Assembly: GCA_965205265.1 (NCBI GenBank)
Contig: CBDBGH010000003.1
Location: forward strand, 4,096,001-4,160,000
Direction of reading: 5' to 3'
DNA length: 64,000 bases
Source: Alphaproteobacteria bacterium
Lineage (GTDB): Bacteria; Pseudomonadota; Alphaproteobacteria; Bin95
The translations under genes and the position numbers were made by a program. Under the pieces are notes generated by a model, which ran no database searches, was not told the DNA's origin, and was given only the letters and a program-made list of their open reading frames with translations. Each line of letters opens with the position of its first letter. Positions within the stretch are counted from its first letter, which is position 1. Of this stretch, positions 61,592-62,972 are shown piece after piece.

Positions 61592-61660
61592 GGCCGTCAG
61601 GCCGGCGGGCGAAGCCCGGCAACCGTCGGCGCAATCCGCGAGGCCCTTGTATCTCGGCGG

Positions 61661-61821
61661 TTCGTTGTTGCGGCTATAGTCGCGGCCACGGAAGCGGACG
61701 GGAGACCGAACCGGCCCAGGTGTCGAAGACCGCGGGGGAGCATGGTTCCCCGTCCGCTGTTCCCCTGAACCCGAACAGTCGCTTGGTCCGCTCTGCGAGA
61801 CCGCATTTGCAAGGAAGGGAC
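61661..61821 (+). ncRNA. Putative bridge RNA of the IS110 element
   Basis: 5' hairpin (~61661-61693); target loop closed by AGCGGACGGG/CCCGTCCGCT; donor loop containing ACAGTCGCTTG; guides match the element ends and the flank. Exact RNA ends are inferred. Confidence 0.78.
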
Positions 61822-62754
61822 ATGGAACAGATTTTCGTTGGGATCGATGTGGCGAAGGACCGTCTGGATGTGCATCTGCGCCCGTCCGGGGAGGCCTTTG
61901 CCGTCGCGCGCGACGGCAAAGGCCTGGAAGAGTTGACGGCGCGGCTGGGCGGTCTGGAGGTCGCCCTGGCGGTGCTGGAGGCAACCGGCGGCTTCGAGGT
62001 CACGGTTGCGGCGGCGCTCTGCGCGGCCGGCCTGCCGTTGGCGGTGGTCAACCCGCGCCAGATCCGGGACTTCGCCCGCGCTACCGGCCGGCTCGCCAAA
62101 ACCGACACCCTCGATGCGGCGGCGATCGCACAGTTCGCCGAGGCGGTCCGCCCCGAGGCCCGTCCGGTGCCCGATGAGCAGGCCCGCGCGCTTGCCGAGC
62201 TGGTCGCCCGGCGGCGCCAGGTCGTTGCGATGATGACTGCTGAGAGAAACCGCAGGAAGCGCCTCGCAAGCCGTCGCACGATCCGCAGCGTCGACCGCGT
62301 GCTCGCCACCCTGCAGCGCGAACTCTCCGACCTTGAAACCGAACTCGGCGACGCCATCCGAAAAAGCCCCGCATGGCGCCAGGCCGAGGACCTCCTCAAA
62401 AGCGTCCCCGGCATTGGCGACACCACCGCGCGAACCCTGATCGCCGATCTCCCGGAACTCGGAACCCTCACCCGAAGGCGCATCGCCGCCCTCGTCGGCG
62501 TCGCGCCCTTCAACCGCGACAGCGGCAAAATGCGCGGCAAGAGAGCCATATCGGGAGGGCGCGCCCACGTCCGCACAACCCTCTACATGGCAGCCCTCAC
62601 CGCTGCCAGATACAACCCAACCATCAAACACTTCTATCGCCATCTGATCGCTGAAGGGAAAACCAAAAAGGCCGCCCTCACCGCCGTCATGCGAAAGCTC
62701 CTCACAATCCTCAACGCCATCCTCAGAGACCGAACCCCATGGAAAACTGCTTGA
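61822..62754 (+). CDS. IS110-family DEDD recombinase (310 aa)
   Basis: [19 protein letters not shown] (D-E-D-D), SVPGIG, DSGK (catalytic Ser region); RBS GGAAGGGA. Confidence 0.95.
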
Positions 62755-62972
62755 CCGACAACACAGTCGCTCCCCCGCAAGCGGGAGAGGGGAAGAAAGG
62801 AGCAGGGCAGACACGATCCTATGCCCGAAACAGCCACAGCATATGCGCCCACGACATGCAGAACATGACATCCCATGACACATCGCACGGGGGTCCCGCC
62901 GGCCCGCATGACGAAACATGACATCCCATGACATGCCGCGCCCGTCCCCCGCCGCCGCATGCCGGGCGGGCG

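Follow-up and report, generated by a model that had tools for sequence, protein, structure and literature searches.

The question raised by the right-hand part of the DNA analysed here is whether it holds a complete bridge-recombinase system, that is, an IS110-group insertion sequence together with the RNA that would guide it. The whole stretch, called the window below, comprises 64,000 nucleotides of contig CBDBGH010000003.1 (positions 4,096,001 to 4,160,000) from an alphaproteobacterial genome of 5.70 Mb, 3 contigs and 68% G+C. An earlier note, made from the letters alone, had proposed an intact IS110 bridge-recombinase system near its end, and all coordinates and strings of that note were found in the sequence. 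Boundaries, copy number, protein family, catalytic residues and the covariation of both RNA structure and guides with flanks were observed directly and bear this proposal out. It is thus highly likely that positions 61648-62771 are an intact, probably active IS110-group element of the IS621 type, which would move as described for IS621. Its parts and immediate flanks are as follows.

61639-61645, plus strand: left target flank (LT) of the window copy, 7 nt CGAGGCC, read from the sequence
61646-61647, no strand: left CT core, where identity between both genomic copies begins
61648-62771: IS110-group insertion sequence of 1,124 bp with a CT core on each side, starting with TGTAT (61648) and with its right end stopping at 62769
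61648-61821, plus strand: left end (LE), 174 bp, non-coding bridge RNA region preceding the ATG at 61822
61822-62754, plus strand: recombinase gene, 310 amino acids, DEDD RuvC-like and Tnp domains, from the open reading frame (ORF) and Pfam, PDB and NCBIfam comparisons
62755-62769, plus strand: right end (RE), 15 bp after the stop codon, whose last 7 nt ACAGTCG (62763-69) are the left donor (LD)
62770-62771, no strand: right CT core, from the sequence and the two-copy comparison
62772-62778, plus strand: right target flank CCCCCGC, the 5' arm of a hairpin resembling repetitive extragenic palindromic (REP) sequences

An element lying between two CT dinucleotides was confirmed by a second copy, which a search of the source genome located on the minus strand at G000:C3:894334-895457. 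It is 100% identical across 1,124 bases and ends at the same positions as the window copy, as the earlier note had expected of any further copy. The flanks of the two copies are unrelated and diverge immediately outside CT at both ends, the left flanks ending in ...GGCC-CT and ...GGCG-CT and the right flanks beginning with CCCCCGC and CCCCCGG. Target duplication is limited to the CT core at both junctions in these two copies with different flanks. Among 16 other genomes of the genus, BLAST matches to orthologous or paralogous flanks stop at window position 61647 on the left and start at 62770 on the right, and the orthologous left flank in genome G007 runs on into CT plus CCCCC. Because the two identical copies diverge at CT and the flank matches within the genus stop there, the boundaries and the CT core can be regarded as right. 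Long terminal inverted repeats were not found, and only a 3-bp inverted repeat (ACA...TGT) lies around the donor. The non-coding LE (174 bp) is far longer than the RE (15 bp), which is a stated trait of the IS110 group (Durrant et al., PMC11208160).

The encoded protein matches Pfam PF01548 DEDD_Tnp_IS110 (5.2e-23) and PF02371 Transposase_20 (1.9e-20), and it scores 220.9 bits against the NCBIfam equivalog NF033542 'IS110 family RNA-guided transposase' (cut-off 140). The best PDB matches were the IS621 transposase 8wt6 (E 7.7e-41, query residues 4-307) and ISCro4 9t56 (4.2e-40). Residues D9, E53, D95, D98 and S234 align to D11, E60, D102, D105 and S241 of IS621, with S234-G235 opposite S241-G242 in the PDB alignment; these five IS621 residues were shown to be essential by Hiraizumi et al. 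(PMC11208158). An alignment with 18 homologues (72-93% identity) shows none of the five to vary. A homologue search gave at least 8,000 scored candidates, every one below E 0.001, and among the 120 homologues listed identity was 72-93% and the length nearly always 310 amino acids.

Within the recombinase ORF, 70 nt past the ATG, lies a perfect 34-bp palindrome (61892-61925, no strand). Palindromes with arms of at least 14 bp occur at the same ORF position in 9 of the 69 family loci scanned, and in locus L015 both arms differ in sequence, with amino acids changed. The recurrence at one position and the change on both arms in L015 suggest selection on a DNA or RNA hairpin.

A scan of species-representative genomes gave at least 553 pattern matches, of which at least 486 were confirmed relatives. 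The best 80 of these relatives were kept as loci, with protein identities of 50-93%; they come mostly from Alphaproteobacteria, and also from Nitrospira, Acidobacteriota, Chloroflexota and actinomycetes. In 66 of the 80 loci the RE shows the motif TTGAn, a spacer and A(C/G)AC(A/G)... to a final GCT directly after the stop codon. The alignment of left ends omits 14 of the 80 loci, which had no GIDV-type anchor by regular expression or lay at a contig end. The 67 aligned rows were reduced to 53 in which the LE start could be recognised and the left flank was complete, and then to 48 non-redundant ones. The window and 47 distinct left ends make up the alignment used for the structure, which MAFFT built blind to pairing.

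A two-loop bridge RNA in the left end had been postulated in the earlier note, and the fold of minimum free energy (MFE) of the single LE sequence reproduces its stems. The following elements were assigned.

61667-61686, plus strand: 5' stem-loop with an 8-bp stem and UAUA loop in the MFE fold; a hairpin of variable length lies there in the family alignment
61693-61758, plus strand: target-binding stem-loop; outer stem AGCGGACGGG (61693-702) with CCCGTCCGCT (61749-58), helix 3, compensatory changes in 7 of 9 pairs
61719-61731, plus strand: inner hairpin of the target-binding loop, GGT...ACC, helix 4 of the family alignment
61770-61819, plus strand: donor-binding stem-loop; outer stem CCC (61770-72) with GGG (61817-19), helices 5 and 6
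61785-88 with 61799-802, plus strand: inner hairpin of the donor loop, GGTC pairing with GACC

RNAalifold, run on the 48 distinct left ends, predicted the target-binding stem-loop with its inner hairpin as well as the outer and inner stems of the donor-binding loop. Twenty-two of its pairs were counted, two predicted pairs between both donor guides being omitted. Standard pairs filled 95.3% of the cells of these 22 pairs in the 48 left ends, compared with 81.5 +/- 0.7% after shuffling (0/500), and sliding the partners by 1-3 columns lowered the paired cells to 32-50%. Changes on both sides were seen in 16 of the 22 stem pairs. This covariation across 48 left ends supports the postulated structure, and, judged by the aligned sequences, the LE is the 5' hairpin and the two internal-loop stem-loops of a predicted bridge RNA, the architecture that has been described for IS110 bridge RNAs (PMC11208160).

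The minus strand of the same region is matched, below threshold, by a known RNA family. Rfam RF02234 sX15, a small RNA of Xanthomonadaceae, matches the minus strand of window positions 61677-61828 over the full model length with 29.8 bits, and matches were also found in 3 of 14 relatives (L034:1340-1482, L018:1324-1484 and L060:1325-1461, with 43.9, 40.2 and 35.3 bits), all four scores lying below the RF02234 gathering score of 55. The family sX15 may represent an antisense reading of an IS110 left end; within the literature library searched, no paper names both 'sX15' and 'IS110'.

Four guides can be read within the two loops.

61709-61717, plus strand: left target guide (LTG) in the family register, AACCGGC plus core positions CC, from family covariation
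61734-61740, plus strand: right target guide (RTG) GGGGGAG, reverse complement of core CT plus CCCCC
61775-61783, plus strand: left donor guide (LDG), ACAGTCG plus CT, identical to the RE end plus core (9/9)
61808-61813, plus strand: right donor guide (RDG) TGCAAG, pairing with core CT plus TGTA with one G-T wobble

The check for covariation between guides and targets that had been suggested in the earlier note was positive across the family for the left and right target guides and for both donor guides. For this, guide strings were taken from alignment columns and half-sites from the flanks, non-redundant pairs were used with the window excluded, and flanks shuffled among loci served as control. 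In the family register, in which the LTG consists of 7 nt beginning one base after a conserved GACC-G, LTG and LT agreed at 4.19 of 7 positions versus 2.50 +/- 0.15 after shuffling (0/2000; 47 pairs). Registers -1, +1 and +2 gave matches at or near the shuffled level, in an analysis that relies on ungapped loop columns and in which at least locus L062 is visibly one base off. The LTG match climbs toward the core from 0.23 at position -7 to 0.91 at -1, with 77% at the first core base and 49% at the second. For the RTG, the match reached at least 95% at both core bases and at +1 to +4, 76% at +5, 15% at +6 and 39% at +7 (41 pairs), and over positions +1 to +5 of the right target (RT) it amounted to 4.61 of 5 versus 2.05 after shuffling (0/2000; 41 pairs).

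The donor guides follow the ends of the element in the same manner. The LDG equals the last 7 nt of the RE in 20 of 21 distinct combinations, the remaining one agreeing at 6 of 7, and the variants ACAGCCG, ACAGTTG and ACGGTTG change jointly on both sides. Together with the 11-nt identity of ACAGTCGCTTG (61775-85) to the circle junction, which was reached in 0 of 3000 LE shuffles, this upholds the LDG as originally called. The RDG had been called as TGCAAG with one wobble, and this is corroborated by the family: GCAAG pairs with CT-TG, and the three loci whose LE starts with CCTA instead of TGTA (L034, L041 and L042) carry a compensatory GGAGG.

For the target guides, the original calls held in part. 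The LTG had been placed at ACCGGCCCA (61710-18), which is the correct region, one nucleotide 3' of the family register. An RTG of 9 nt had been read at 61732-40, where GCGGGGGAG is the reverse complement of core plus right flank, a match reached in 71 of 3000 LE shuffles. Its 7 nt at 61734-61740 hold and match core plus 5 nt at 7 of 7 positions at both genomic copies; positions 61732-33 do not covary in the family and are probably a linker. Within the window only the LDG and the RTG beat chance in the 3000 LE shuffles.

The target itself appears to be a repeat of the host. On the right, the element is flanked by the 5' arm of a REP-like hairpin, CTCCCCCGC-AA-GCGGGGGAG. The genome contains 10 occurrences of the 14-mer of CT plus 12 nt, 6 of them after ...CCACCCGG(C). 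With LT scored in register +1, the second-copy site ranked among the best 15 of 3,802 genomic CT sites with an RT match of at least 6/7. The site of the window copy does not stand out, being equalled or surpassed by 23 of 108 such sites. IS110 elements known to target REPs include IS621 (PMC11208160). A dense cluster of REP-like GC-rich hairpin repeats (CCCCGCTTGCGGGG units) surrounds the element at 61330-61600 and 62772-62800, with many paralogous copies across the genus.

How the element would move can be outlined from the IS621 work, which supplies the circle, promoter use, RNA expression, RNA-guided catalysis and programmability. Two promoter boxes lie at opposite ends of the element.

62751-62756, plus strand: putative -35 hexamer TTGACC, overlapping the stop codon, 15 nt from the right-hand core end
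61650-61655, plus strand: putative -10 hexamer TATCTC, 17 bp from the -35 hexamer once circularised

In 55 of the 80 family loci TTGAC keeps a constant distance to the RE end, and 51 of the 52 family left ends starting with TGT have TAnnnn at LE positions 3-8. Reconstitution of a promoter at joined ends was shown for IS621 (PMC11208160), and the putative promoter across the RE-LE junction fits this; its use here would be by analogy. In this scheme, the element would excise as a circle joining RE (...ACAGTCG), CT core and LE (TGTAT...), which would place TTGACC 17 bp from TATCTC and create a promoter from which the LE would be transcribed into a non-coding bridge RNA of some 160-175 nt. The bridge RNA would bind the 310-amino-acid DEDD/Ser recombinase, and its donor loop would pair with the junction, the LDG (61775-83) with the bottom strand of ACAGTCG-CT and the RDG (61808-13) with the top strand of CT-TGTA. 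Recombination would then take place at CT, with the 5' arm of the host REP-like hairpin as preferred target.

Several observations weigh against an intact, guided element, and some of them would suit another view of the left end, namely that it is merely the 5' untranslated region or promoter of the transposase gene and that its complementarities to ends and flanks are coincidental. The single-sequence fold of the LE is no more stable than that of shuffled sequences (z = -0.92), so that the structure is supported by covariation and not by energy, and an Rfam search of the LE gave no plus-strand family match. Furthermore, TATCTC resembles the sigma-70 consensus only weakly. Of 3000 LE shuffles, 2861 did at least as well as the best exact left-target match, GGCCC (5 nt), and no exact right-donor match lay above chance (2174 of 3000). 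As these window-only matches are no better than chance, the LTG and RDG calls rest on family covariation. However, coincidence would have to account for compensatory changes in 16 of the 22 stem pairs, for guides that covary with flanks and ends in 41-47 non-redundant relatives (0/2000 shuffles) and for the 11-nt junction identity (0/3000). These three results effectively refute an explanation by an untranslated region or promoter, which is hardly credible any more.

Other observations concern the activity of the element. It might be the same IS110 element in a quiescent or crippled state, its two copies being relics of duplication or rearrangement and its bridge RNA no longer specifying the occupied sites. 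Only two copies are present, compared with 110 occurrences of the 9-mer half-site CTCCCCCGC, which argues for low activity or further requirements. Three unoccupied REP sites of the form ACCCGGC / CT / CCCCCGC fit the guides in the family register at 6/7 plus 7/7 and thus better than both occupied sites (coordinates refer to the emptied genome).

G000:C3 near 4225060, plus strand: unoccupied, better-fitting REP site
G000:C3 near 1883452, minus strand: unoccupied, better-fitting REP site
G000:C3 near 3186158, minus strand: unoccupied, better-fitting REP site

Since these sites fit better than either occupied one, the guides look tuned to the host REP consensus. In the family register the LTG agrees with its own left flanks at only 2/7 positions for the window copy and 3/7 for the second copy. 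A search of 16 further genomes of the genus for orthologous empty sites found none for either insertion. None of these genomes has the genes on the two sides of the window copy next to each other, and of the second copy the left flank alone is conserved in the genus, with conservation ending about 130 bp short of the element. Elsewhere in its own genome, the empty site deduced for the window copy (16 to 18 nt) has no exact match.

Against quiescence stand a full-length ORF with all catalytic residues kept, the 100% identity of the two copies over 1,124 bp between flanks unrelated on both sides, which excludes segmental duplication as their source, and CT plus CCCCC at both sites with the RTG matching at 7/7. 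The high rank of the second-copy site (among the best 15 of 3,802 with RT at least 6/7, in the +1 register) points in the same direction. In addition, a sister element of 91% identity in a genome of the same genus (G011) is present in nine full-length copies, all of whose sites match its own RTG at 6-7/7. Quiescence is therefore judged improbable, and an intact, probably active element is the preferred reading.

The poor left-half match might have a different origin. In the +1 register (61710-61718) the LTG agrees with its own left flanks at 4/7 positions for the window copy and 6/7 for the second copy, whereas for the G011 sister element, which has the same loop length, 9 of 9 sites favour the family register (3-4/7) over the shifted one (1-2/7). 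As a tentative and rather doubtful suggestion drawn from these strings, the LTG might be read flexibly in this sub-lineage, by a one-nucleotide shift of the DNA against the register of 47 relatives of equal loop length or, equivalently, by a one-base bulge next to the core, with site choice resting largely on the right half-site (CT plus 5 nt of the REP arm). If true, the slipped LTG register would exemplify 'half-match' or slipped-register bridge recombination in nature.

The window copy lies at a break of synteny, with a 109-amino-acid ORF (60957-61286) and a minus-strand membrane-protein gene (from 62973) flanking the element. A reciprocal rearrangement junction at the window copy was considered and rejected: the sequences found in G007 after the left flank and before the right flank do map side by side in the source genome (G000:C3:2544180-2545274), but about 170 bp and an intact REP separate them, so that a precise exchange at the CT core is not supported. 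An inversion between the two copies was likewise rejected, as the expected flank adjacencies are absent.

Among the relatives, the G011 genome contains, besides its nine full-length copies, at least three 5'-truncated copies of the sister element. In one (L007:about 1330-1420, equal to G011:C3:1141028-1142106) the first ~45 bp of the left end are swapped for unrelated sequence, and two others lack the first 67 bp; judged by position, such copies would be without the right donor half-site and the -10 box. In an Actinoplanes relative (L084:2441-2543), the right end of the element abuts a match to the TwoAYGGAY RNA motif (46.2 bits, gathering score 43).

The best-studied system for comparison is IS621 of Escherichia coli (PDB 8wt6; PMC11208160, PMC11208158). 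Shared with it are a two-domain recombinase that aligns full-length with the five catalytic residues, the CT core, a -35 box in the RE and a -10 box in the LE (putative here), insertion into REP-type repeats and an LE-encoded RNA with 5' hairpin, target-binding loop and donor-binding loop, the RNA being compared by published descriptions. The RTG of IS621 has 4 nt and is extendable to 7 (PMC11208160), whereas the RTG here naturally comprises 7 nt (core plus 5). Further differences are a protein only distantly similar (143.8 bits), a shorter element (1,124 bp), a second core position of the LTG that is not T (C or A depending on the register) and a host that is an alphaproteobacterium with 68% GC. 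The donor ends look nearly identical to the IS621 ones. A search of 5,426 E. coli genomes with the DNA of the element gave no match.

ISCro4 (PDB 9t56) also aligns over the full length of the protein (E 4.2e-40) and is as distant as IS621. The nearest annotated relatives at the DNA level are ISMno7 of Methylobacterium nodulans and unnamed 'IS110 family transposase' elements on alphaproteobacterial plasmids, with 64-67% identity over 80-96% of the element. With DNA identity to these annotated relatives below 70%, the present element would merit an IS name of its own. The 80 genomic relatives (50-93% protein identity) share the bridge-RNA scaffold and the RE motif TTGACn-N..-ACAGTCG-CT, but they, like ISMno7 and the plasmid elements, differ in target guides and target sites. 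ISPpu9 and ISPpu10 of Pseudomonas putida (PMC12288879; bioRxiv 10.64898/2026.03.19.712850), likened here by description only, are further IS110 elements inserting into REP or conserved intergenic repeats.

Durrant et al. predicted bridge RNAs in 85.7% of IS110-group elements, reported covariation over thousands of orthologues and had already catalogued thousands of them (PMC11208160), so that the present element will hardly surprise specialists. It is one ordinary further member of the IS110 family among thousands, and the lists of orthologues and bridge RNAs of Durrant et al. may already hold this clade. What it adds to the known systems is a further complete bridge recombinase whose bridge RNA can be read. 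It comes from a high-GC clade of Alphaproteobacteria, an abundant one (at least 486 confirmed relatives). The earlier note had seen in it a potential orthogonal programmable tool; the practical value is modest, as many orthologues have been catalogued and screened already; it would be that of a candidate orthologue with a natural 7-nt RTG and a compact 310-amino-acid enzyme. Its natural sites, two here and nine in the sister genome, combine strong matching in the right half with weak or slipped matching in the left half, which bears on the off-target rules of bridge editors.

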